Source of the DNA: Candidatus Daviesbacteria bacterium | GTDB taxonomy: Bacteria; Patescibacteriota; Microgenomatia; Daviesbacterales; UBA10151 | Assembly (NCBI GenBank): GCA_028687915.1 | Contig: JAQTZF010000001.1 | Location: 167,969 to 214,228 of the forward strand | Reading direction: 5' to 3' | Length of the DNA: 46,260 nucleotides | In this document: in pieces, positions 3,385 through 45,187 of the stretch | Layout of the letters: every line of letters starts with the position of its first letter | Position numbering within the stretch: the stretch's first letter is position 1 | Made by a program: the position numbers and the translations under genes | Notes under the pieces: generated by a model | Told to the model about the DNA's origin: nothing | The model's database searches: none | What the model saw: only the letters and a program-made list of their open reading frames with translations

Positions 3385-4052
3385 ATGGCAAATATTTTAG
3401 TTTTTGGTGATAGCGTCGCTTACGGAGCCTGGGACCCAAAAGGTGGTTGGGTTAGAAGGTTAAGGGAAGTGATTGAAGAGCCAATTTATAAAACAGCCAT
3501 ATATACAAAACATTACAAGCTCACAGGCGATGCCTCTCTTGTCTATAATTTAGGCGTTACTATGAGACTACTACTAGTATGTTAGTAAGATTTGAAGGTG
3601 AGACTAAGGCAAGACTATGGGGAGACGATACAATTATTTTTTCGATTGGCAAAAATGATGTCTTGCTTGATAACCACGCAAAAACTTTGGCAGTTTCACC
3701 ACAAGAGTTTGAAATGAATCTTAGAAAGTTGATACTCTTTGCTAAACGACACGCAACAAGGGTTATTTTAATGGAAACTTTACCAATTGATGAAAAAAGA
3801 GTTAATCCTATTCCTTGGCTAACGACACATTCTTATAAAAGTGAAGACATAAAACATTATAATGAGATTATTAAAAAGGTAAGCGAAAAAGAAAATGTTC
3901 CCTTAATAGAAATTTATTCAAAACTTATTAATACAGATTTTGAGAATTTATTAGAAGATGGAATACATCCTAATACAGAAGGGCATAAATTTATTTGCGA
4001 AGAAGTTAAAGAGTACTTAGTAAAAAATAAAATTATTGATCTTGAAGGGTAA
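3385..4052 (+). pseudogene. SGNH/GDSL hydrolase split by a frameshift (ORFs 3385..3585 and 3579..4052)
   Basis: ORF1 carries block I (ILVFGDSVAYG) and reaches YNLGV. The expected block II continuation (S)GETTTSMLVRFEGE is readable in the frame of ORF2 from 3564 onward. ORF2 carries block III (IGKNDV) and block V (DGIHPNTEGH). Only 5 nt (3559-3563) lie where 6 are expected, so the simplest reading is a 1-nt loss. Confidence 0.7.
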
Positions 4053-4977
4053 GAGGTGGGGTATTGATAAGTTGAACCTCTGGTTCAAGGGTCACTCCAA
4101 ATTTTTCTTTTACCTCTTTGATTAAGCTTGAAGCCAGTTCAATAAAGTCTGCAGTTTTGGCGTTTCCGGTATTTACAATTAAATTGGCATGACCGTTTGA
4201 TACTTTTACATCTCCAACCTTTTTGCCTTTTGCCCCAATGCTATCCAATAAAAATCCGGCTGTTATTTTTCCGTGTACAATTTTATCTTTAGGAATAAGC
4301 TTTAATGATTCAGGGGGCATATTTTCTACGGGAATATTTTTAAAAAACGAACCAGGGTTTTTGCCTTCCCAGAAATTTTTACCAGCCCTTGTTTTTAAAA
4401 TATTTTTTACTTCTTTGGCTACTGTATGTGGTTGTGCTTTTGCAAGCTTAAAATGAGCTTCCAAAATAACATAATTATTCTTTTTAAAGATAGAATCACG
4501 ATAATCAAATTTACATTGTTTTTTAGTTAAGGATACTACTGCTTTTTTTTGCGGGTCAAAGCAAATAACTCTTGTAAGGTTGTCACTAGCAGCAGTTCCA
4601 TAAGCTCCGGCATTACCATATATTGCTCCACCAACTGTACCAGGAATACCAGCCAGTTTTTCTACTCCTGTTAAATCCTGTTTAACTGACAGAGACACTA
4701 ATTGTGAAAGCAGTGTACCTGAACCAACTTTAAGGATTTGCCTAAAGCCGATAATACCTTTGATACTATTTTTTATAACTAATCCGGGAAAACCATCGTC
4801 TGCAATTAAAACATTACTGCCGCTCCCCAGGATTAAATAAGGCAGCTTTTTAGATAACGCCCAATTAATTGCTTCGACCATCTTTTCTGGTGTTTTAGCA
4901 CTATAAAAATACTTGGCAGGACCACCAACTCCTGAGGTATTTAAATTACTTAAAATAATATCCTTTTGTACTTTCAT
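4033..4977 (-). CDS. murB: UDP-N-acetylenolpyruvoylglucosamine reductase
   Basis: FAD-binding N-terminus (GGPAKYF, YLILGSGSNVLIADDGFPGLVI), GIPGTVGGAIYGNAGAYG, and a MurB C-terminal domain (GSFFKN, SIGAKGKKVGDVKVSNGHANLIVN). Confidence 0.9.
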   Translation of the reverse strand: MKVQKDIILSNLNTSGVGGPAKYFYSAKTPEKMVEAINWALSKKLPYLILGSGSNVLIADDGFPGLVIKNSIKGIIGFRQILKVGSGTLLSQLVSLSVKQDLTGVEKLAGIPGTVGGAIYGNAGAYGTAASDNLTRVICFDPQKKAVVSLTKKQCKFDYRDSIFKKNNYVILEAHFKLAKAQPHTVAKEVKNILKTRAGKNFWEGKNPGSFFKNIPVENMPPESLKLIPKDKIVHGKITAGFLLDSIGAKGKKVGDVKVSNGHANLIVNTGNAKTADFIELASSLIKEVKEKFGVTLEPEVQLINTPPLTLQDQ

Positions 4978-4985
4978 ATTTAGGT

Positions 4986-4993
4986 ATTATACA
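4986..4993 (-). promoter_or_regulatory. TGTATAAT -10 element, 8 nt upstream of the murB ATG
   Basis: The minus strand reads TGTATAAT-acctaaat-ATG, and no SD motif is present. Confidence 0.45.
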
Positions 4994-4996
4994 CTC

Positions 4997-5025
4997 TTGA
5001 CAGAAAAAAAAATCATGATTAAAAT
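4997..5025 (+). promoter_or_regulatory. sigma-70-type promoter of the groES operon (TTGACA-17 nt-TAAAAT)
   Basis: TTGACA at 4997-5002, a 17-nt spacer, then TAAAAT at 5020-5025. It lies about 27 nt upstream of the groES ATG. Confidence 0.55.
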
Positions 5026-5051
5026 AGCAAAGCAGCTAGTAGGCTGCCAAT

Positions 5052-5387
5052 ATGGGACGAACATCTAAAACACAAATAGACAAAGCCCCTGCCCCACAAA
5101 AAATCAAACCTTTAATGGGCTATGTATTAGTAGAGCCAACAGCAGCAGAAACCCACACTTTATCCGGTATTATTTTGCCAGAATCAGCCCAAGAAAAACC
5201 AGCTATGGGAACAGTTATTTCAATAGGATCAGATTTAATTATGAATGGTGGTAAAGTTATGGCTGCTCCGGTAAGTGTTGGTGATAAAGTATATTTTAAA
5301 AAATGGGGTGGAGATGAAATAAAAGTTAATGGTAAGGAATTAAAATTAGTAAAATTTGATGATTTAATAGCAATTGTGGAAGGATAA
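5052..5387 (+). CDS. groES: co-chaperonin GroES (with about 18-aa N-terminal extension)
   Basis: KIKPLMGYVLVEP...SGIILPESAQEKPAMGTVISIG...GDKVYFKKWGG.EIKVNGKELKLVKFDDLIAIVE matches the Cpn10 pattern. The conserved IKPL begins at residue 18. Confidence 0.9.
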   Translation: MGRTSKTQIDKAPAPQKIKPLMGYVLVEPTAAETHTLSGIILPESAQEKPAMGTVISIGSDLIMNGGKVMAAPVSVGDKVYFKKWGGDEIKVNGKELKLVKFDDLIAIVEG

Positions 5388-5388
5388 T

Positions 5389-5736
5389 ATGACAGAAGGA
5401 AAAACAGATATTAATATTGAAATTGAAGCATTAAAATGGCAACTTAATTTAGCAGATGTTTCTGTTAAGTTGGAAAAGGCTTCAATGTTAGAAGAAGCAG
5501 GGAGTAAAAATATACTAGAGGTTTCTACTCGCCTTGGATTAGAAACAGAAAAGGTTTCTGAATGTGAAGGTATGATTAGAATGGCTAGACATATACTAGG
5601 CCTTTTGGAAGGACAAAGTGGTGATCCACAAATTGGTTTTTTAATCGATCGAGGGAGACAAAAATTTAATAAAGCACGGGCTTTTATCGAGAGTAATCCA
5701 ATTTTAGGAGAACGAGGTCTTGAAATAAAGGAATAA
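5389..5736 (+). CDS. hypothetical protein (115 aa) inserted between groES and groEL
   Basis: ORF 5374..5736. The ATG at 5389 is preceded by GGAAGGA (5378-5384) and lies 1 nt after the groES stop. It looks helical, has no TM segment, and carries no motif I recognise. Confidence 0.6.
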   Translation: MTEGKTDINIEIEALKWQLNLADVSVKLEKASMLEEAGSKNILEVSTRLGLETEKVSECEGMIRMARHILGLLEGQSGDPQIGFLIDRGRQKFNKARAFIESNPILGERGLEIKE

Positions 5737-5740
5737 AAAT

Positions 5741-6088
5741 ATGGCAGAAACAGAATTTAGTAGAGAAAAAATTAGAATGATGGGAGAAGCAATAGATGAT
5801 AAGATTGCTGATTTGAGAACAAAACAAACAAAGAGCTTTTCTGGGGATAGAAAGTTATATGGAACTTTTCAGGCTGCAAAGGATCAACGGGATAAAGATA
5901 TAGGGATGTTGTTTGCTATGAGAAGTGCGTTAGATATTATATTAGGAGATATCCCTCCTCGAATAGGCTTATATTCAGAACAAGCATTTAATCTATTTCC
6001 CCAAGAAGAAGCTAATCAGACAGAAACAACTAAAAATCCAAGGGGATACTCTGTAGGAACTGGGAATGTTGACGCAGGAGAGAGATAA
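5741..6088 (+). CDS. hypothetical protein (115 aa) inserted between groES and groEL
   Basis: The ATG lies 4 nt after the previous stop, with AAGGA at 5728-5732. It has no recognisable motif. It shares a weak local resemblance to the preceding ORF (GMLFAMRSALDIILGD.PPRIGL versus GMIRMARHILGLLEG...DPQIGF). Confidence 0.6.
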   Translation: MAETEFSREKIRMMGEAIDDKIADLRTKQTKSFSGDRKLYGTFQAAKDQRDKDIGMLFAMRSALDIILGDIPPRIGLYSEQAFNLFPQEEANQTETTKNPRGYSVGTGNVDAGER

Positions 6089-6091
6089 TAT

Positions 6092-7714
6092 ATGGCTAAA
6101 ATATTAAAATTTGATACAGAAGCAAGAGAAAAATTATTAAAAGGTGTTAACATCCTAACCGAAGCTGTGGCTTCAACTTTGGGTCCAAAAGGACGTAATG
6201 TTGCCATAGATAAAAAGTGGGGAGCTCCAAATGTTGTCCATGATGGAGTAACTGTGGCTAAAGAAATAGAGCTGGAAGATCCTTTTGAAAATATGGGTGC
6301 CCAACTTATAAAAGAAGCTGCTTCTAAAACCAATGATGTAGCAGGCGACGGAACAACTACAGCAACAATCTTAACTCAGGCAATTGCAGCAGAAGGCTTA
6401 AAAAATATTCAGGCCGGAGCAAACCCAATGATTTTACGCCGTGGCATTGAAACTGCAACTAATGCGGTGGTGCTAGAGCTTGCTAAAATGAGTAAAAAAT
6501 TAACCACCACTGAAGAAATTACTCAAGTGGCTACTGTTTCTGCTCAAAACGACGAGATTGGTAAATTAATTTCTGAAGCAATTAGTAAGGTTGGTAAAGA
6601 TGGAGTAGTAACTGTTGAAGAAGGTAAAACAATGGCTATGGGTGTTGATTATAAAGAAGGTATGGAATTTGATAAAGGTTATGCTTCTGCGTATTTTGTG
6701 TCTGATAGTGAAAGGATGGAAGCAACTATAGAAGATGCTTATGTATTAATTACTGATAAAAAGATCTCCAGCATGCAGGAGCTTTTACCATTCTTGGAAA
6801 AGTTTGTGGCTGTTTCTAAAAATCTGGTTTTAATTGCTGATGAGATTGATGGTGAAGCATTGGCAACATTGGTTCTGAATAAACTTCGCGGTGTTTTTAA
6901 TATTTTAGCAGTAACAGCTCCTGGATTTGGTGATAGAAGAAAACAAATGTTGGAAGATATTGCTATCTTAACTGGTGGAACAGTAATCTCAGAAGCTACT
7001 GGTAGAAAATTTGAGTCTGTTGAAGTTAGTGATTTAGGAAGAGCTGGAAGGGTAACAGCAACCAAAGATAGTACTTTGATAGTTGATGGAAAAGGATCTA
7101 AAACAGCCATTACTGCCAGAATTGCTCAAATTAGAAAAGAGGTAGAGAATAGTGATTCTGAGTTTGATAAAGAAAAATTGGCTGAAAGATTAGCAAAATT
7201 AACTGGTGGGGTAGCAGTAATTAATGTTGGAGCTGTAACTGAGATTGAAATGAAAGAGAAAAAAGAGCGGGTGATTGATGCCGTGGCTGCTACTAAAGCT
7301 GCAATAGAAGAAGGAATTGTACCAGGCGGAGAAATAGCTTTGATTCGTGCTAGTAGAGCGCTAGATGGTCTTAAGGCTGAAGGCGAAGAGTTATTAGGTA
7401 TTATGATTGTTAAAAAAGCATTGGATAAACCATTTAGAAGATTGGTTGCAAATGCAGGACTGGATGAAGGTGTGTCTTTGGCAAAAGTGTTAGAAGCAAA
7501 AGATAATGAGGGTATAGATGTAATTGATGGTAAGATCAAAGATCTGGTTAAAGCTGGAATTATTGATCCTGTTAAAGTTACCCGTTCAGTTTTACAAAAT
7601 GGAGCTTCTGTCGCTACTATGATTATGACAACTCAGGTTTTGATTACAGATAAGCCTGAACCAACCCCCCCAGCTCCTCCAATGCCAGGAGGTATGGGTG
7701 GAATGGATTATTAA
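6092..7714 (+). CDS. groEL: chaperonin GroEL (60 kDa)
   Basis: [37 protein letters not shown], the ATP site DGTTTATIL, and a C-terminal GGMGGMDY tail. Confidence 0.97.
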
Positions 7715-8076
7715 TGAACGAAGTAATAGTTGCTCCAAGACCTCACACAGAATTTATAAACGCGACAACAGCTATTGTGGCAAAATGTGTATTTGACTGC
7801 ACTGATGCAGAGAGTGCAAGAACGCTGGCAGCTAGATATATCAGAGCAGAACTTGATGTTTATAAAAAAAGATGGGGTAGTGATGGCTATAAGGCTATGT
7901 TTAGACAGAGGCTTTTAGAACGGATTGAAACAAGAGGTGATTTAGCAATTGTTGTGGATTACCTTCATGCAGTTAGAAGAGATTTACTGATGAATAACAC
8001 CTCCAATCATGAACCACCTGTACAAAGAGGAATAGCAATTTCTTTTGATAATTTAGCTAGCTCTCTAATTCAGTAG
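7714..8076 (+). CDS. hypothetical protein (120 aa) coupled to the groEL stop
   Basis: The start overlaps the groEL stop (TAATG). It is a long open frame in stop-rich AT-rich DNA. It has no recognisable motif. Confidence 0.55.
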   Translation: MNEVIVAPRPHTEFINATTAIVAKCVFDCTDAESARTLAARYIRAELDVYKKRWGSDGYKAMFRQRLLERIETRGDLAIVVDYLHAVRRDLLMNNTSNHEPPVQRGIAISFDNLASSLIQ

Positions 8077-8118
8077 TCGATTTCACTTCTTATTGGTAGA
8101 TATAGTATTATTAAAGCA

Positions 8119-8712
8119 ATGGCAAAGCTACATTATCAAGAAGCAATCACGGAAAAAGAGAAAAAGGCTTTTGAAAAATTCTTAGCTGAAGATGAAGAAT
8201 TAATTTTAGCCACTGGTTTTGGTTCGGTTTACTTACGTTCTGTGTTTATGCAGGCAATTCTTTGGCCTGGAATTATCTTTTGGATTATTGGATTAGCTTC
8301 TGCAAATTTTTTGCAGATAAACTTAGGATACGGACTTTTAGTAGGCTTAATCTTTTCTTGTTTAGTAGCCTTTTTAAAGAGTACTCATGCATATCATGCT
8401 AACCGTTATCTTTTAACAACCAGGAGAGTGATTATTAAACGGGGTGTGTTTGCAGTTTCTTTAACCTCTGCTCTTTACGATAAAATTACTCATATTGAAG
8501 TGATTCAATCCTTTATTGATAAACTCTTTTATCATTTAGGTAATATTATTATTAATACTGCTGGAACTAATAAAGATGAAATAGTTTTAAAATATGTTGA
8601 TTACCCTGTGGAATTTAAGAATCTACTGGAAAGAATGATTAACCGGGAACGTGAACAATATGGCGGACGTGGTGGATCAGTCACTACTATTGAAGGTGAA
8701 TTAGTGGACTGA
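8119..8712 (+). CDS. PH-domain (bPH_2/YdbT-like) membrane protein
   Basis: Two TM helices are followed by YLLTTRRVIIKRGVFAVSLTSALYDKITHIEVIQSFIDKLFYHLGNIIINTAG, typical of the bacterial PH domain PF03703. TATTAT at 8106-8111 lies 7 nt before the ATG. Confidence 0.6.
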   Translation: MAKLHYQEAITEKEKKAFEKFLAEDEELILATGFGSVYLRSVFMQAILWPGIIFWIIGLASANFLQINLGYGLLVGLIFSCLVAFLKSTHAYHANRYLLTTRRVIIKRGVFAVSLTSALYDKITHIEVIQSFIDKLFYHLGNIIINTAGTNKDEIVLKYVDYPVEFKNLLERMINREREQYGGRGGSVTTIEGELVD

Positions 8713-9396
8713 TTTAGAATAGGCTATAAAATCAGGAACTGCAGGTAATATATTAGCAGGGTTAATATATTTATTATTCTTCATAATTTCCAAATGAGTG
8801 TGTGGTCCTGTAGTACGCCCAGTTAGCCCCACCTGGCCTAAGATTGAATCCTTGGTAACAGAATCTCCTGCTTTAGCATATATTTTACCCATGTGGCTGT
8901 AGGTTGATTTATAGCCTAATTCATGTTCAACTGTGACCTGATTTCCATAACCAAAAAAACCATATTTAACTTCAGTTACTTTTCCCTTTAAAATTGGATG
9001 AATAGGCATACCTAAACCTATGGCAATATCTATTCCGGGATGCCAGGATGAATAAGTAGTGGTTAAATATCCAATATGAGGAAGACTAAAAGGTTCAGAA
9101 AGAGTGCCTGGTTCAATTTTTTGATCCTGAGAAAAGTCTGCTAAGACAACTGATTTTTGAATAGGTGGAATAGCCAGGACAGGCTGATATCCGGTGAAGT
9201 AAAGAGCCATCAATATCATAAACGCAAATTTAGAAGCGATTGATGGTCTTAAAAATATTGGTAGCTTTCTATAACCCCTTTTATACTTTAAAAGCTGATG
9301 TTGGGAGATTAAGTGATTTAGGGCGACCCCTTCATTTAACCTCTTAGGCAAAAGTTTTCGAATTAATCGAAAATTCATACTTTTCGTGATGAACAC
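8701..9396 (-). CDS. M23 family metallopeptidase (LytM-like)
   Basis: HPGIDIA and GLTGRTTGPHTHLEI motifs, with an N-terminal TM segment. The start is uncertain, either GTG 9396 or ATG 9378. Confidence 0.85.
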   Translation of the reverse strand: MFITKSMNFRLIRKLLPKRLNEGVALNHLISQHQLLKYKRGYRKLPIFLRPSIASKFAFMILMALYFTGYQPVLAIPPIQKSVVLADFSQDQKIEPGTLSEPFSLPHIGYLTTTYSSWHPGIDIAIGLGMPIHPILKGKVTEVKYGFFGYGNQVTVEHELGYKSTYSHMGKIYAKAGDSVTKDSILGQVGLTGRTTGPHTHLEIMKNNKYINPANILPAVPDFIAYSKSVH

Positions 9397-9489
9397 GAAG
9401 TGTAAATTATACTTTAACTGAGCTTAAAAAGCAAATTAAGAAGCTTGAGTTAGCCAAACAACTAAAGTATTTTTTGTATATAATTGATA

Positions 9490-10296
9490 ATGATGAGAAG
9501 AAAACTTTTTTTACTTTTAGTATTTATTTGCCTGATACTTTTAATAATTCAATTTGGTAAACAACAACTGACAGATATTTTGGGGGTCACCTCCAAAGGA
9601 GGATTAAAAATTGTATCTGTGCCAATCGAGGCAGCTGTATATATTAATGGTCAGGAAGTGGGTAAGACTCCTTATAGGGATGATAATTTAGATGTGGGGG
9701 AATACTCAGTAAAGATTAGCAGTAATGATTCTTCTTGGGAGGGAAAAATTAGTTTAAATAAAGGCACTTTGTCTGTAATAAATAGAAGTCTTTCTCCAAA
9801 TACTGCTTCATCTTCTGGAGAAAGCCTGGTTTTGGATAAGGGGCAGGGTATCATAATTACCTCTACTCCAGGAGGTTCGGATATTTCAGTGGATGGAAAG
9901 TTAGTGGGGCAATCTCCATTATCTATATCTGATTTATCTTCCGGATCACATAGTTTTGATGTTTCTCATGATGGGTATTTAAGCCGAAGGGTTGATGTAA
10001 TTGTTCCTGCCAACTTGTCTCTTCATATAAACGTTGATTTGGCTTTAATAGCAGTGAAGGAAAATAATGTTATTACCCCCACAGTTGCTGTTGTAAAAAA
10101 AATAGTTATTAAACAAACCCCACTTGGATATTTAAGATTAAGAGAGGGGCCAAGTATTAATACTAAAGAAGTAGGACAGGTATCAGCTGGAGAAGAGCTA
10201 AATATAGTTTCTGAAAGTGGTAGTTGGATTAAGGTTAAATTAAAAGATAACTTAGAAGGATGGGTTTCTGCTCAGTATATTCAAAGGCTTAATTAA
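9490..10296 (+). CDS. PEGA-domain / SH3b-domain envelope protein
   Basis: Signal anchor, then two PEGA-like repeats (LKIVSVPIEAAVYINGQEVGKTPY; IIITSTPGGSDISVDGKLVGQSPL). The C-terminal SH3_3-like segment is YLRLREGPSINTKEVGQVSAGEELNIVSESGSWIKVKL..GWVSAQYI. The ORF track starts at TTG 9484; ATG 9490 or 9493 follows TATAAT at 9479-9484. Confidence 0.7.
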   Translation: MMRRKLFLLLVFICLILLIIQFGKQQLTDILGVTSKGGLKIVSVPIEAAVYINGQEVGKTPYRDDNLDVGEYSVKISSNDSSWEGKISLNKGTLSVINRSLSPNTASSSGESLVLDKGQGIIITSTPGGSDISVDGKLVGQSPLSISDLSSGSHSFDVSHDGYLSRRVDVIVPANLSLHINVDLALIAVKENNVITPTVAVVKKIVIKQTPLGYLRLREGPSINTKEVGQVSAGEELNIVSESGSWIKVKLKDNLEGWVSAQYIQRLN

Positions 10297-40461: not shown

Positions 40462-40490
40462 TTGACAAAATTTAGCAGTCTTGATATATT
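40462..40490 (+). promoter_or_regulatory. hrcA operon promoter (TTGACA-17 nt-TATATT with TGn extension)
   Basis: TTGACA at 40462-40467 and TGaTATATT at 40482-40490. Confidence 0.6.
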
Positions 40491-40498
40491 AGTGCTAA
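40472..40498 (+). promoter_or_regulatory. CIRCE operator (HrcA binding site)
   Basis: The site reads TTAGCAGTC-N9-TAGTGCTAA against the consensus TTAGCACTC-N9-GAGTGCTAA, a 16/18 match. It overlaps the promoter directly upstream of hrcA. Confidence 0.75.
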
Positions 40499-40540
40499 TA
40501 GATCGATGGGTAAACACCTTCGGCCTATAAAAATGAATTT

Positions 40541-41269
40541 ATGTCAGAATTATCTGATCGTCAGCAACAACTATTAAAAGCAATCATAGAAGCTTATGTT
40601 AAGAACGGCGAACCAGTTTCTTCTGATTTAATTGAAAAGGGATCATCGCTTGGAGTATCCCCTGCTACCATCAGAAATGAGATGGTAAATTTAACTGAAA
40701 AAGGGTTCTTAAAACAACCACATGTCAGTGCAGGGAGGGTCCCAACAGCCATGGGTTTTCGTCTCTACATTAATGAAATAATGAAAGAGAAACAATTATC
40801 TGTGGTAGATGAGGTAAGCATCAGGCAACAAATGATGGATGCCCGGGCACAATTCAACCGAATGGTGCATGTTGCCACTAAGGCTTTGGCTAAAAAATGT
40901 GACACTTTAGCAATTGCCATTAATGGTGATGATATTTATTACACCGGTGCAGCTAGTATTTTAGATTTGCCGGAGTTTTTTGATATTGATGTAACAAGAT
41001 TTGTTTTATCAATGTTGGATGAGCAGGCAATTTTAGAAAAAGTTTTTAGTATGGCACAAGGTGAACAACCTTTGCATATTATTTTTGGAGAAGAGACTGA
41101 GTATGAACATTTGATTCCTACCAGCTTTGCTTTTCTAAATTTTGAAACAGGAAGAAAGGATTTAGGAATTATAGGAGTAATTGGACCAAACAGGCTCAAT
41201 TTTCCGGTAGTTATGCCTTATCTGCGCTATATTGGAGAAGTTTTAACAGAAGCAGGTCAGATTAGGTAA
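40541..41269 (+). CDS. hrcA: heat-inducible transcription repressor HrcA (short, 242 aa)
   Basis: The N-terminal wHTH is LSDRQQQLLKAIIEAYVKNGEPVSSDLI...VSPATIRNEMVNLTEKGFLKQPHVSAGRVPT..GFRLY. It is shorter than the usual HrcA of about 340 aa. Confidence 0.85.
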   Translation: MSELSDRQQQLLKAIIEAYVKNGEPVSSDLIEKGSSLGVSPATIRNEMVNLTEKGFLKQPHVSAGRVPTAMGFRLYINEIMKEKQLSVVDEVSIRQQMMDARAQFNRMVHVATKALAKKCDTLAIAINGDDIYYTGAASILDLPEFFDIDVTRFVLSMLDEQAILEKVFSMAQGEQPLHIIFGEETEYEHLIPTSFAFLNFETGRKDLGIIGVIGPNRLNFPVVMPYLRYIGEVLTEAGQIR

Positions 41270-41281
41270 TTTATAAATAAA

Positions 41282-41746
41282 ATGGCTAAAAAACAAACAC
41301 AATTAGAAGAGTTAGGATTAAAAGTACAAAGCCTGGAAGATCAGCTAAAGCGTGCTGTGGCTGATTATCAAAATTTGGAAAAGAGAATTCAGGATGGAAG
41401 ATCAGAATTAACCAAATGGGCAAGTGGTGATTTGGTAATGAGAATTTTACCAACGCTAGATCATTTGGATACTGCTTTAGGTGGGGCCAGTGAGGGTGAT
41501 AAAGCATCAGGTTGGTATAAAGGAGTGGAGCTGGCAGTTAAAGAATTTAAAAAAGTATTGGAAGAAGAAGGATTGCAAACAATTAATATTCAGATCATGG
41601 ATGAATATGATCCAAGGTTAGCTGAAGCAGTCGAAACAAAAGAAGGAGAAGAGAATAAAGTTTTAGAAATTGTACAAAACGGTTATAATATGAATGGAAA
41701 AGTTATCAGACCAGCCAAAGTGGTGGTCGGAAAGAAAGAAAACTAA
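41282..41746 (+). CDS. grpE: nucleotide exchange factor GrpE
   Basis: ADYQNLEKR (compare ADFENYRKR), [11 protein letters not shown], and a C-terminal beta domain ([23 protein letters not shown]). Confidence 0.9.
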
Positions 41747-41747
41747 T

Positions 41748-43664
41748 ATGGCAAAAATAATAGGTATAGATCTTGGAACAACAAACAGCTGCGTTGCGGT
41801 GATGGAAGGTGGTAAACCTAAAGTCATCCACTCTGCCGAGGGAGAAAATACTATTCCTTCAGTGGTCAATCCTATTAAAAATAACGTAGGGAGAGTAGCA
41901 AAACGACAATCAATCGTAAATCCTAAAGAAACTATCTTTTCCGTCAAACGTTTGATGGGAAGAAAATTTGATGATGCTGAGGTTCAACGGGATATTAAAT
42001 GGCTTCCATACAATATTAAATCCGGTAAAAACGGCATGGCTGTTGTTGATGTTGAAGGTCATGAATATACTCCTCAAGAAATTTCTGCTCAGATCTTACA
42101 AAAAATTAAAGCAGATGCTGAAAGTTATTTAGGGGAAAAAGTTACTGAGGCAGTAATTACAGTACCAGCATATTTTGATGATGCTCAAAGACAGGCTACT
42201 AAACAGGCAGGAGAAATTGCTGGTTTAAATGTTCAAAGAATTATTAACGAACCAACTGCTGCAGCGCTGGCATATGGTTTGGATAAACAAAACGCTCACA
42301 CTATTGCAGTTTATGATCTTGGTGGAGGAACTTTTGATGTTTCTATTTTAGAACTTGGTGATGGGGTTTTTGAAGTTAAATCAACTAATGGCGATACTCA
42401 TTTAGGAGGAGACGATTTTGATCAAAAAATTATTGATCATATGGCAGATGAGTTCAAAAAAGAGCAGGGAATTGATCTAAAATCAGACAGACAGGCATTA
42501 CAAAGACTCCGAGATGCAGCTGAAAAAGCCAAAATTGAACTTTCTTCTTCAACTGAAGCAGAAATTTCTATTCCTTTTGTAACAGCAGATGCTTCTGGTC
42601 CAAAACATTTGGAAATGAAATTATCCAGAGCAAAACTGGAAGATTTAGTAAAAGAGTTGGTTGATAAGAGCTTTGATGCTGTTAAAAATGCTCTGAAAGA
42701 TGCCAAAGTGGATGCAAAATCTGTGGATGAAGTAATCTTGGTCGGAGGAATGACTAGGATGCCGTTGGTCCAAAAGGCAGTGCAGGACTTTTTCGGAAAA
42801 GAACCTCACAAAGGTATTAATCCGGATGAAGTAGTCGCTGTGGGAGCTGCTATTCAGGGAGGGGTTTTGGGTGGAGAAGTTAAAGATGTGTTGCTTTTGG
42901 ATGTGACCCCACTAACTTTAGGAATTGAAACTTTGGGTGGAGTTAGAACTCCGTTAATAAATAGAAATTCAACCATTCCAACTTCAAAAACAGAAGTATT
43001 TTCAACTGCAGCTGATAATCAAACTCAGGTGGAAATCAATGTATTACAGGGGGAGCGAGAAATGGCAGCAGATAATAAAACATTGGGTAGGTTTGTGCTT
43101 GATGGTATTCCACCAGCACCTAGGGGTGTACCACAAGTAGAAGTTACTTTTGATATTGATGCCAATGGTATCTTGAATGTTTCTGCCAAAGATAAAGCCA
43201 CCGGAAAAGAGCAAAAAATAACCATTACTGGTTCAACAGGACTTTCTAAAGAAGATGCAGAGCGTATGGCTAAAGAAGCTGAAGCTCATGCAGAAGAAGA
43301 TAAAAAGAAAAAAGAAGAAATTGAGGTTAAAAATCAGGCTGATACTTTAATTTATACAACTCAAAGATCTATTAAAGATGCCGGGGATAAAATGCCTGTT
43401 GAAACTAAAGAAGATTTAGAAGGAAAAATTAAAGAATTGGAAGAAGCAGTAGCAAAAGGTGATAAAGATGAAATCAAGGCTAAATCAGAATCTTTATCAG
43501 AGGCCTTATCTAAATTTGGTCAGTCTCAATATCAACAGCCAGGCGCTGAAGGTCAACCAGAACCGGAGATTAAGCCTGAAGAAGAAATTGGACCAAAAGA
43601 AGAAGATGGTAAAGCTGAGGCTGTTGAAGGAGAAGTGGTAGATGATGGCAGTACAAAAAGTTAA
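41748..43664 (+). CDS. dnaK: molecular chaperone DnaK (Hsp70)
   Basis: [30 protein letters not shown] and [11 protein letters not shown] motifs. The ATG at 41748 lies just after the grpE stop. The track start 41694 is an upstream in-frame artefact inside grpE. Confidence 0.97.
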
Positions 43665-43691
43665 CCAAATTTCTCAGTGAAAGGTTGGTTT

Positions 43692-43715
43692 AGCCTCGGG
43701 AAACCGGGGCTTTTT
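43692..43715 (+). terminator. rho-independent terminator after dnaK
   Basis: The hairpin is AGCCTCGG-GAAA-CCGGGGCT, with 7-8 bp including one G-U pair and a GAAA loop. It is followed by TTTTT. It ends 5 nt before the next ATG. Confidence 0.75.
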
Positions 43716-43719
43716 AATT

Positions 43720-44271
43720 ATGAATAAACTAAATACTATAAATTTAAAAGGCTTTGACATTCAGTTTCAGACTCAGCCTGGAGTTTTTTCAAAAGCAGGT
43801 TTAGACGATGGAACAAGATTACTAATTGATAATTTAGAGATTGAGGATGGAAGTTTATTGGCAGATTTAGGAAGTGGTACCGGTATTTTAGGTATTACTT
43901 GTGCTTTACTTAATCCACATGGGCATGTTCATTTACTTGATGATCATGTAAGGTCAGCAAAATTAACAAAACAAAATATTGAGATTAATAAACTAAGAAA
44001 TGCAGAAGGCTATTTAAGCGATCTTTTTAGTGAAGTAGATAATCGAACCTATCATCAAATTTTTTCTAATCCTCCAGCTCAGATGGGCAATGATTTTCTG
44101 GAAGAAGTTACCACTCAGTCCTTTAAACATTTGAAAGAGAATGGAATATTATGGTTTGTGGTGCCTCATCATCTTAAAAATGTGATAGAAAAGTTGTTTC
44201 AAAATGTTTTTGGAAACTGTACAATTGTGGCGCACGGCAAAGAACATATTGTTCTGAAAGCAAAAAAATAA
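43720..44271 (+). CDS. class I SAM-dependent methyltransferase (MTS domain, RsmC/RlmG-like)
   Basis: QPGVFSKAGLDDGTRLLI, motif I DLGSGTGILG, and the catalytic IFSNPPAQMG (NPPx). Confidence 0.75.
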   Translation: MNKLNTINLKGFDIQFQTQPGVFSKAGLDDGTRLLIDNLEIEDGSLLADLGSGTGILGITCALLNPHGHVHLLDDHVRSAKLTKQNIEINKLRNAEGYLSDLFSEVDNRTYHQIFSNPPAQMGNDFLEEVTTQSFKHLKENGILWFVVPHHLKNVIEKLFQNVFGNCTIVAHGKEHIVLKAKK

Positions 44272-44272
44272 C

Positions 44273-45187
44273 ATGGCTACCAAAAGAGATTTTTATGAAG
44301 TATTAGGCTTAAAAAAGAATGCGAGTGAGGCAGAGATTAAATCTGCTTATCGAAAGTTGGCCAGAGCCCATCACCCTGATGTGGATAAAACTGCAGGAGC
44401 AGAAGCCAGATTTAAAGAAATTTCAGAAGCCTATCAGGTATTATCTGATCCACAGAAAAAAAGTACATATGATCAGTTTGGCTCGGCTGCTTTTGAACCT
44501 GGTGCAGGTGGAGGTCCTGGGGGATTTGGGGGTGGTGCTCAGGGTAATCCTTTTGGTGGGTTTTATTATGATTTTTCATCAGGAAATAGATCATCACAAG
44601 GTCAGGATTTTGGTGGATTTGAAGATCCCTTTTCTCTTTTTGAACAAATCTTTGGTATGGGAAATATGGGAGGATTTAGTGGAAGAGCACAAAGACAAAA
44701 TCCTACATATCAATTGGAAATTGATTTTGAAGATGCTGTCAATGGAGGTACTAAACATGTTCAAATTCCGGCTGAGAATGGTCATAAAAGAGAGCTAACC
44801 ATTAAGATTCCACCTGGAGTAGATAATGGAACTAGAATGAGGTTTGAGGATGTGGATATTATTTTTAGATTACGTCGTCATCCGGACTTTTTAAGAGAAG
44901 GCTCAGACATTTTTTCTGACATTTTATTAAACATTCCACAACTAGTTTTGGGGGATGTAGTGGAGGTAAAAACTGTTTGGGGTAAGGTTAAATTAAAGGT
45001 TCCAGCTGGCACAGAACCCGGAGCTTTAATTAGAATTAAAGGCCAGGGAATGCCTAATTTAAGGGGAAGTGGTCGAGGAGATCATTTTGTCAGGGTAAAG
45101 TTAGAAGTTCCAAAAAAGCTAACAACAGAAGAAAAAGATTTATATGAGAAGCTTCTTAAACTAAAACCCAAAAAGAATTGGTTTTAA
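44273..45187 (+). CDS. dnaJ: J-domain co-chaperone DnaJ lacking the Cys-rich zinc-finger domain (type II / CbpA-like)
   Basis: J domain (DFYEVLGL...AYRKLARAHHPDV with HPD), a G/F-rich linker, and C-terminal CTD I/II. No CxxCxGxG repeat is present anywhere in the 304 aa. Confidence 0.85.
   Translation: MATKRDFYEVLGLKKNASEAEIKSAYRKLARAHHPDVDKTAGAEARFKEISEAYQVLSDPQKKSTYDQFGSAAFEPGAGGGPGGFGGGAQGNPFGGFYYDFSSGNRSSQGQDFGGFEDPFSLFEQIFGMGNMGGFSGRAQRQNPTYQLEIDFEDAVNGGTKHVQIPAENGHKRELTIKIPPGVDNGTRMRFEDVDIIFRLRRHPDFLREGSDIFSDILLNIPQLVLGDVVEVKTVWGKVKLKVPAGTEPGALIRIKGQGMPNLRGSGRGDHFVRVKLEVPKKLTTEEKDLYEKLLKLKPKKNWF

Follow-up and report, generated by a model that had tools for sequence, protein, structure and literature searches.

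Variable arrays of small open reading frames between groES and groEL in Daviesbacteria-like CPR bacteria

The genes groES and groEL are among the most conserved gene pairs of bacteria. In the 46,260-nucleotide stretch of Candidatus Daviesbacteria DNA analyzed here (the window), they are separated by two small open reading frames (ORFs), orfA and orfB, and followed by a third, orfC. Candidatus Daviesbacteria belong to the Microgenomates group of the Patescibacteria, or candidate phyla radiation (CPR). The comparison with relatives reveals a clade with minimal genomes that routinely splits the groES–groEL pair by 0–7 genes of fast turnover having a common nucleotide start signature. We regard it as probable, if well short of certain, that orfA, orfB, and orfC are accessory passenger genes of a clade-wide class of ORFs that occupy this slot and for which the groESL operon serves as an expression platform. 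They are neither conserved co-chaperones nor fixed parts of the chaperonin: a third of the relatives have an empty slot, and its content turns over even between genomes with >90% identical GroEL proteins.

The operon shares with the canonical groESL operon controlled by HrcA and the CIRCE element (controlling inverted repeat of chaperone expression) the gene pair and its order, a sigma-70-type promoter, a CIRCE-like repeat, and the presence of hrcA with a CIRCE in the window. It differs in that two cistrons interrupt the pair and a third follows it, and in that the junction holds 0–7 unrelated ORFs in the clade. Hence, the new element is the interruption of an ordinary HrcA/CIRCE groESL operon by a variable array. 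A full-text literature search returned no account of CPR bacteria with ORFs between these two genes, which is not proof of novelty.

The groES–groEL slot across relatives

Loci were gathered by searching for GroEL in species-representative genomes, by comparing an alignment of Daviesbacteria GroES with metagenomes, and by exact protein look-ups; all the relatives are metagenome-derived, Daviesbacteria-like CPR bacteria. The synteny in the clade is murB, groES, gap 1, groEL, gap 2, and bPH (a gene for a bPH_2-domain membrane protein), and both gaps vary widely. Among the 66 distinct loci of this sample, groES and groEL are adjacent (≤15 nt) in 23 (35%), and gap 1 is filled by one to seven small plus-strand ORFs of ~60–190 amino acids in 39 (59%). 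Four of the 66 have a short gap 1 without an ORF, some of them with a palindromic repeat resembling miniature inverted-repeat transposable elements (MITEs). The original prediction, made from the sequence of the window alone, proposed checking whether homologs recur between groES and groEL in relatives; ORFs as such do recur there, in these 39 loci. The median distance from one cistron to the next is 5 nt, and 77 of 95 spacers measure ≤15 nt. All three ORFs of the window follow the position rule of the class, that is, they lie on the plus strand within 15 nt of their neighbors. Distant CPR lineages (GroEL 63–67% identical) have short groES–groEL gaps only.

The content of the slot differs between close relatives. 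The window has orfA and orfB, the locus L084 (GroEL 93% identical to that of the window) has a single unrelated 88-residue ORF, and L164 (92% identical) has none in gap 1. In a neighbor-joining tree of GroEL, occupied and empty slots are interspersed, and nearest neighbors differ in state in 19 of 40 cases. A single homologous family for all slot ORFs can be rejected, as jackhmmer searches with 3,100 decoy ORFs connect only a handful of them. Smith-Waterman scores among slot ORFs equal those of shuffled sequences except in the tail, where 18 pairs versus 6 score at least 45. No Pfam, PADLOC, or credible PHROG match was found for 59 ORFs (56 from gap 1 and the three of the orfC family). As a group (n = 55), the slot ORFs have GC contents of 0.53, 0.40, and 0.27 at first, second, and third codon positions, closed alternative frames, and a helix-favoring composition. 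The 55 ORFs (loci L002–L163) are also rich in Arg (8.3%) and poor in Lys (5.1%) in comparison with the GroEL, and with the MurB and bPH, that these AT-rich genomes encode (~3% Arg and ~9–10% Lys), and C is unusually rare at their third positions (7.7%).

Two particular origins were considered and rejected. The original prediction took the equal length of orfA and orfB and a weak common motif as a hint of tandem duplication. Such duplication does occur in the slot, since two of the seven ORFs of locus L160 are paralogous. The similarity between orfA and orfB, however, is within chance (BLASTP E = 17; Smith-Waterman score 29 versus 26.3 ± 4.6 in shuffles, z = 0.6, p = 0.24), and their paralogy is not retained. 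The other origin is a partial duplication of the groEL 5′ end, an idea prompted by the pair ATGGCAGAAAGATT and ATGGCAAAGATT, by the position of orfB in the frame of groEL, and by the helical N-terminus of GroEL. Against GroEL residues 4–140, 55 slot ORFs give a mean z of 0.06, the same as control segments.

Gap 1 also contains repeats. A palindromic MITE-like repeat (GTCATCCTGAGG...CTTCGTTCAGAATGAC) lies in or beside gap 1 in L003 (5881–6000; the same as L134), L111, L155, and L095; its occurrence in several relatives indicates that the groES–groEL junction also attracts small noncoding insertions. An identical 22-nt element with small internal palindromes, GCAAAGCTTGCGAGCTGCGCTC, stands right after the groES stop in L084 (5340–5361) and L096 (5286–5307). 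These two loci carry different slot ORFs, and the element is in none of the other 162 loci.

Start signal and boundaries of slot ORFs

The slot ORFs, which are mostly mutually unrelated, share the start signal AAAAATATG-RCA-GAA, encoding Met-Ala/Thr-Glu. The consensus of 56 unique starts is GGAG-AAAAAT-ATG-RCA-GAA-A. MAE or MTE opens 34 of the 73 raw slot ORFs and 35 of the 59 unique ones after clean-up, compared with ~1% expected from composition. The starts of six ORFs were chosen with the motif in mind, and a count of ATGRCAGAR in the DNA is independent of that choice. In 23 kb of gap 1 DNA, 39 ORFs of at least 50 codons begin with this string, and the remaining 1.0 Mb of locus sequence, both strands included, has 4 such starts; the signal is ~400-fold rarer in flanking DNA than in the slot. 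The whole window has exactly two ATGRCAGAR sites, the starts of orfA and orfB, and both ORFs have the class context AAAAAT-ATG-RCA-GAR (ATGACAGAA for orfA and ATGGCAGAA for orfB). For orfA we take the ATG at 5389 as the start, rather than the in-frame TTG at 5374, because the ATG is embedded in the clade-wide motif.

The signal is conserved beyond the residues that it encodes. Of 27 Ala codons at position 2, 26 are GCA, and of 15 Thr codons there, 14 are ACA, whereas these codons make up 40% and 45% of the respective codons in the ORF bodies; the start of groEL itself (ATGGCWAAR) varies freely at synonymous sites. Slot start regions are nearly devoid of predicted RNA structure (mean −2.6 kcal/mol versus −7.3 for internal 50-mers, p = 5e-9), the values being −1.0 for orfA, −0.9 for orfB, and −0.1 kcal/mol for groEL. 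The motif, the conserved codon choice, and the unstructured starts together indicate that constraint acts at the nucleotide level. Such features fit an efficient, coupled initiation site.

In three cases the boundary of a deletion or of a homologous segment coincides with a start context. The first concerns orfB, which is missing from the sister-strain contig L082 (~98% identical), where the order is groES–orfA′–groEL. In L082 the stop codon of orfA is followed by AAAAATATGGC-TAAAATATTAAAATTT, running straight into groEL (TAAAATATTAAAATTTGAT). The 351-nt indel is bounded by direct repeats of ATATGGC, which are the start contexts of orfB and groEL; orfB is, to judge from this pair of strains, dispensable. 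In the second case, the loci L003 (without an ORF) and L100 (with one), whose GroEL proteins are 95% identical, differ by a deletion that joins AAGGAGAAAATATG directly to groEL. In the third, the homology between the first and fifth ORFs of the L160 slot is 100% over the last 50 nt and the spacer and ends right after the next ATGG(C/G)AGAAA.

The divergence between the window and L082 is also a mosaic. It is 0.9% in groES and 14% in codons 1–14 of orfA; none of 315 nt differs in the rest of orfA and the junction, and 8 of 235 nt (3.4%, all synonymous) differ at the 5′ end of groEL (Fisher p = 0.001 for the last two segments). This distribution points to recombination near the junctions. All six substitutions in orfA (five nonsynonymous, making four amino acid changes) fall in codons 3–14 (5397–5428 of the window and 502–533 of L082), and the other 101 codons are identical.

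The slot genes and their possible roles

As far as sequence can tell, orfA, orfB, and orfC are real, natively coded genes. Out-of-frame stops occur at ~9.5 per 100 codons in these genes, so that a 115-codon frame would be open by chance with a probability of ~1e-5. Their codon log-likelihoods in their own frame are +0.36 (orfA), +0.33 (orfB), and +0.20 (orfC) log2 units per codon, compared with +0.29 to +0.52 in native genes (groES, hrcA, grpE, and bPH), and drop to between −0.7 and −1.4 when either alternative frame is read. GC content decreases from first to third codon positions, its overall level is that of the neighbor genes, and an independent gene caller predicts all three ORFs on Logan contigs. 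The original prediction recognized no motif in them, and we find no known family, fold, phage, or defense profile. Pfam, NCBIfam, PHROG (noise-level hits only), and PADLOC (no hits) gave no match; sequence and profile searches of PDB were empty for the orfA family, orfB, and the orfC family; orfC matched none of 50,697 phage records by tblastn; and IMG/VR viral contigs yielded no relatives, either in a scan with the three proteins concatenated or in one with the orfC-family profile. A WXG100/Esx-like identity, brought to mind by the MAE/MTE starts, the length of ~100 residues, and the pairing, was rejected, as PF06013 is not found at E ≤ 1 and there is no central WxG.

The three ORFs differ in the extent of their relatives. 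The protein of orfA is modeled by AlphaFold2 as four helices with low confidence (predicted local distance difference test, pLDDT, 54). Its sole match among 5.8 billion protein clusters is P0002 (97% identical), encoded on a 1,080-bp contig from a sister sample. Distant relatives occupy the same slot in L085 (5714–5989, z = 7.8) and L160 (5338–5715, z = 4.9), where GroEL is only ~78% identical to that of the window, and none was found in the closest relatives, L084 and L164. The protein of orfB, probably with a disordered C-terminal tail, has no homolog but itself among the 5.8 billion clusters and is marginally similar to the slot ORF of L084 (z = 2.2). The model of the orfC product has five helices (pLDDT 71, predicted template modeling score 0.63) and no fold match in PDB or BFVD (best E ~0.45, TM score ≤0.44 relative to the query). 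A full HMMER search of 1.84 billion representatives returned a single homolog, P0008 (L164 2183–2524; 42% identical, E = 3.5e-10), and a second is found in L084 (7277–7630; 31% identical). An orfC-type gene is present only in the window, L084, and L164, where it abuts the groEL stop by −1, 0, or 1 nt. Its products are 33–45% identical, while the GroEL proteins of the same genomes are 91–93% identical; two helices are conserved in the family (TAIVAKCVF and V(E/Q)RGIAxSFxNLA), which has a ratio of nonsynonymous to synonymous substitution rates (dN/dS) of ~0.25–0.3.

Among recognizable pairs of slot ORFs, dN/dS is 0.37–0.78, compared with 0.03–0.09 for groES and groEL of the same genomes at similar dS; these are pairwise NG86 estimates on short, partly saturated sequences and therefore rough. 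Every diverged pair is below 1, and the sole value above 1 is that of the near-identical orfA strain pair (1.35, on six substitutions).

Under the passenger-gene reading, one heat-shock promoter of the CIRCE/HrcA type would drive a single transcript, groES–orfA–orfB–groEL–orfC and possibly bPH, under HrcA control; the block has the promoter and is free of terminator-like sites. A slot ORF would be translated by coupling to the preceding gene, through termination and reinitiation. The start of a slot ORF lies 0–15 nt past the stop codon of that gene, and its surroundings (GGAG-AAAAAU-AUG-RCA-GAA-A in the transcript) are unstructured, rich in A, and conserved in nucleotide sequence. The ORF bodies evolve fast under weak purifying selection and are duplicated, lost, or replaced over short time scales, with boundaries at the repeated start contexts as in the three cases above. 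The slot ORFs would then be dispensable passengers of a strongly expressed, stress-induced chaperonin operon. As for the proteins, we lean, at somewhat less than even chances, toward a lineage-specific function unrelated to GroEL mechanics; it is possible that they are optional modulators or clients of the chaperonin, and rather unlikely that they have little or no protein function.

Several points weigh against the passenger-gene reading. The metagenome loci are the best 80 of the scan, so the slot percentages describe a sample and not a census. The slot class is defined by position and a start motif of 9–15 nt, common descent being unsupported beyond the slight excess of similar pairs over shuffles. 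As orfB has no homolog, there is no sign of selection on its protein, and the dN/dS values of the other slot ORFs are rough, as noted. The start of orfC, ATGAACGAA (Met-Asn-Glu), is not the class motif; in its family only P0008 of L164 starts with it (ATGGCAGAA). The location of breakpoints at start contexts could reflect survivorship, if only the deletions that keep the groEL start are viable. Finally, the putative operator at groES is degenerate (11 of 18 positions), and the single transcript, the coupling, and the control by HrcA are read from sequence.

A first alternative, which we consider unlikely, is that the ORFs are near-neutral spacers that stay open only since a premature stop would uncouple or polarize the translation of the essential groEL. 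Several observations agree with it: dN/dS nears 1 in several pairs (0.63–0.78), slot sequences are essentially unalignable across the clade, conservation is strongest in the nucleotide-level start signal, and the ORFs are tightly spaced and easily lost. We rank it below the passenger-gene reading because junk is expected to be purged, the ORFs resemble proteins, and sub-families keep conserved blocks. CPR genomes are streamlined, at ~1 Mb, yet 59% of the loci retain ORFs and one retains seven, although a clean deletion to groES–groEL adjacency is evidently viable. Codon periodicity, codon usage, and the helix-rich, Arg-rich composition are those of real proteins, no diverged pair reaches a dN/dS of 1, and the blocks of the orfC and orfA sub-families persist at 31–45% identity.

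Lower still we place the proposal of the original prediction, that obligatory co-expression makes the three ORFs dedicated cofactors, regulators, or obligate clients, which would bind GroEL, GroES, or HrcA. This we hold to be improbable, even if the ORFs lie within the operon in tight coupling to its genes, the class is confined to the groESL operon across the whole clade, the orfC family directly follows groEL in three species with its conserved blocks, and small helical proteins are plausible binders. An obligatory partner is hard to reconcile with a slot that is empty in 23 of 66 loci, including L164, with content that is nonhomologous between relatives at 91–93% GroEL identity, or with the loss of orfB in the sister strain. 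The dN/dS values of 0.37–0.78 contrast with the 0.03–0.09 of groES and groEL, although the partner surfaces on GroEL and GroES are highly conserved, and there is no motif or fold match to known co-chaperones. The prediction had staked this idea on syntenic homologs in relatives and on purifying selection: sequence homologs are mostly absent, but the class persists in the same position. What is left of the cofactor idea is a weak form, in which the ORFs encode optional, lineage-specific modulators or clients.

A recent insertion of mobile DNA (a toxin-antitoxin pair, for example, or a phage moron) is very improbable as the source of the ORFs and is essentially excluded. The presence/absence polymorphism of orfB, the PIN-type toxin-antitoxin-like pairs recognized by eye in the groEL–bPH gap of relatives, and the MITE-like repeats of some slots would suit it. 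Against it, profile, phage-record, and viral-contig searches found no toxin-antitoxin, defense, or phage relatives, GC and codon usage are those of the neighbor genes, gaps of 1–4 nt are too short to contain a separate promoter, recombination site, or terminator, and the window genes examined include no integrase or transposase. In particular, Pfam, NCBIfam, and PADLOC reveal no toxin or antitoxin domain in the three ORFs (the only trace, DUF6290 for orfC at E = 0.03, is far below cut-off), and a toxin-antitoxin-type promoter of their own is not found among internal promoter-like sites that do not exceed chance. An inserted toxin-antitoxin pair, a case that the original prediction had named as fatal to its idea, is thus not what the window holds.

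An extension of the passenger-gene reading, which we consider doubtful, is that the junction works as an integrase-free cassette array embedded in an operon, the start context of ~16 nt serving both as coupling signal and as recombination homology for duplication, deletion, and exchange between strains. If so, the slot would supply the population with a pool of small proteins that are stress-induced and diversify rapidly, and whose role would lie in a changing interaction, be it with chaperonin-dependent phages, the episymbiont's host cell, or GroEL itself.

Arrays of comparable appearance exist elsewhere. T4-type phages have hyperplastic regions, in which short conserved regulatory cassettes mediate the shuffling of small novel ORFs located between conserved genes. 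The slot resembles these regions in being an array of small, unrelated ORFs of fast turnover between conserved genes, with a short conserved boundary sequence that coincides with the ends of homology and deletions. The conserved unit differs, however, being a translation start (Shine-Dalgarno sequence-AAAAAT-ATG-RCA-GAA) in the slot and a promoter with a stem-loop in T4; moreover, the slot lies in an essential operon of a cellular minimal genome, and recombination at its motif is only suspected. Integron arrays have one promoter and variable, small, promoterless ORFs, mostly of unknown function, whose presence varies between strains. The slot is likewise a variable array of small ORFs behind one promoter, but its spacers (1–15 nt; 1, 4, 3, and −1 nt in the window) cannot accommodate attC sites, its ORFs are apparently translationally coupled inside an essential operon, and no recombinase or integrase is found among the part of the window genes that was scanned with Pfam. 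With the ORFans of CPR bacteria the slot genes share small size, helical structure, and homologs limited to a narrow lineage; ordinary ORFans are not tied to one operon junction and lack a common nucleotide start signature.

If the slot proteins are functional, they are candidate lineage-specific modulators or clients of the chaperonin in organisms not yet grown alone. If they are nearly neutral, the slot is a natural experiment on the birth, upkeep, and loss of coding sequences under coupling to an essential gene. In practice, it is a sensitive strain marker, as orfB differs between two samples of one study, and a warning for annotation pipelines that assume groES–groEL adjacency.

The operon, its regulation, and neighboring genes

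The positions of the five genes and the gaps between them (1, 4, 3, and −1 nt) agree exactly with the original prediction, and the purine-rich Shine-Dalgarno-like motifs that it reported before the inserted ORFs are present (GGAAGGA at 5378–5384 and AAGGA at 5728–5732). Its single promoter is the top promoter-like site within 4000–9500, and the weaker sites of the block are no more numerous than in shuffled sequence (22 versus 18.7 ± 5.2). The promoter (CTCTTGACA-17-TAAAAT) is conserved in position in L164 and L084, the closest relatives. There is no terminator-like site on the plus strand of the block, again as predicted, and, as the prediction also proposed, the five genes appear to form a single unit with coupled translation.

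Table 1. Coordinates of the operon, its signals, and associated features in the window
Feature	Position	Strand	Description
Promoter of the operon	4997–5025	+	Sigma-70 type, TTGACA-17-TAAAAT, 11/12 match
CIRCE-like inverted repeat	5024–5050	+	ATAGCAAAG-N9-GGCTGCCAA, between −10 box and groES start; degenerate
groES	5052–5387	+	111-residue co-chaperonin with lineage-typical N-terminal extension; Pfam Cpn10 PF00166, E = 3.7e-26
orfA start context	5382–5398	+	GGATAAT-ATG-ACA-GAA-G, includes groES stop codon; fits clade consensus
orfA	5389–5736	+	115 residues, soluble, predicted all-helical; member of a small slot-ORF sub-family
orfB start context	5735–5750	+	AAAAAT-ATG-GCA-GAA-A, full consensus match
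ATATGGC, left copy	5739–5745	+	Start context of orfB
orfB	5741–6088	+	115-residue strain-specific accessory ORF, in frame with groEL
ATATGGC, right copy	6090–6096	+	groEL start
groEL	6092–7714	+	540-residue chaperonin; TIGR02348, 738.8 bits versus cut-off 582.1 (equivalog level)
orfC	7714–8076	+	120 residues; start overlaps groEL stop (TAATG)
bPH_2-domain membrane protein gene	8119–8712	+	Pfam bPH_2, E = 1e-10; downstream of orfC
CIRCE upstream of hrcA	40472–40498	+	Canonical, TTAGCAGTC-N9-TAGTGCTAA, 16/18 to consensus
hrcA	40541–41269	+	Short, 242 residues; Pfam HrcA PF01628, E = 5.3e-18; HrcA_DNA-bdg PF03444, E = 2e-4

The identity of the two chaperonin genes is unambiguous. Residues 17–109 of GroES align to positions 1–93 of the 93 of the Cpn10 profile, that is, to the full domain. 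The NCBIfam GroES sub-family models score 82–88 bits, under their strict cut-offs, as expected for a divergent CPR sequence. GroES is 61–64% identical to Daviesbacteria GroES, and GroEL is 75–77% identical to that of named Candidatus Daviesbacteria, its closest named relatives.

The repeat between promoter and groES has the spacing of CIRCE (TAGCA-N15-TGCCA) and matches 11 of the 18 positions of the consensus TTAGCACTC-N9-GAGTGCTAA. Its position is conserved in L164, L084, and L085, relatives having TAGCG-N15-TGCTA at the equivalent place, and it folds as a predicted 5′-UTR (untranslated region) hairpin of −9.0 kcal/mol. It is a probable operator, which HrcA would bind. The window includes a second complete heat-shock operon (40463–45187), with the order hrcA–grpE–dnaK–methyltransferase–dnaJ, and its canonical CIRCE directly follows a TTGACA at 40463–40468. 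The presence of hrcA and of this CIRCE indicates that the HrcA/CIRCE system exists in the genome, and HrcA is the presumed repressor of the groESL promoter. Given the promoter, the CIRCE-like repeat, and hrcA with its CIRCE in the window, heat-shock co-regulation of orfA, orfB, and orfC with groESL is likely. In the second operon, an MTS-family methyltransferase gene (43720–44271) sits between dnaK and dnaJ, and the longest dnaK ORF begins at 41694, within grpE, its true start being likely at ~41748.

Upstream, the block adjoins murB on the opposite strand. Downstream, the bPH gene is syntenic after groEL in most related loci, often 18–30 nt away, and may be the conserved third gene of an ancestral groES–groEL–bPH operon. 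In the window no terminator-like site was found between orfC and this gene, which is possibly the last of the transcript. Gap 2, between groEL and bPH, is a general insertion hot spot. Its content is heterogeneous, mostly ordinary-looking genes or opposite-strand pairs with a spacing of their own. By eye, pairs in L004 (7620–8431, minus strand), L155 (9257–9918, minus strand), L130 (2183–2885, plus strand), and L135 (3207–3909, plus strand) resemble a PIN/VapC-type toxin with its antitoxin. Other loci have a conserved 132-residue protein (L103, L115, and L140) or an enzyme of ~395 residues (L152 and L162) in this gap.

Elsewhere, the window contains no Rfam family or tRNA. A GDSL/SGNH hydrolase gene seems to be split between an ORF at 3385–3585 (66 residues, with an N-terminal FGDS motif) and an overlapping one at 3579–4052 (157 residues, Lipase_GDSL by Pfam on a Logan contig), which could be due to a frameshift, a pseudogene, or a sequencing error.

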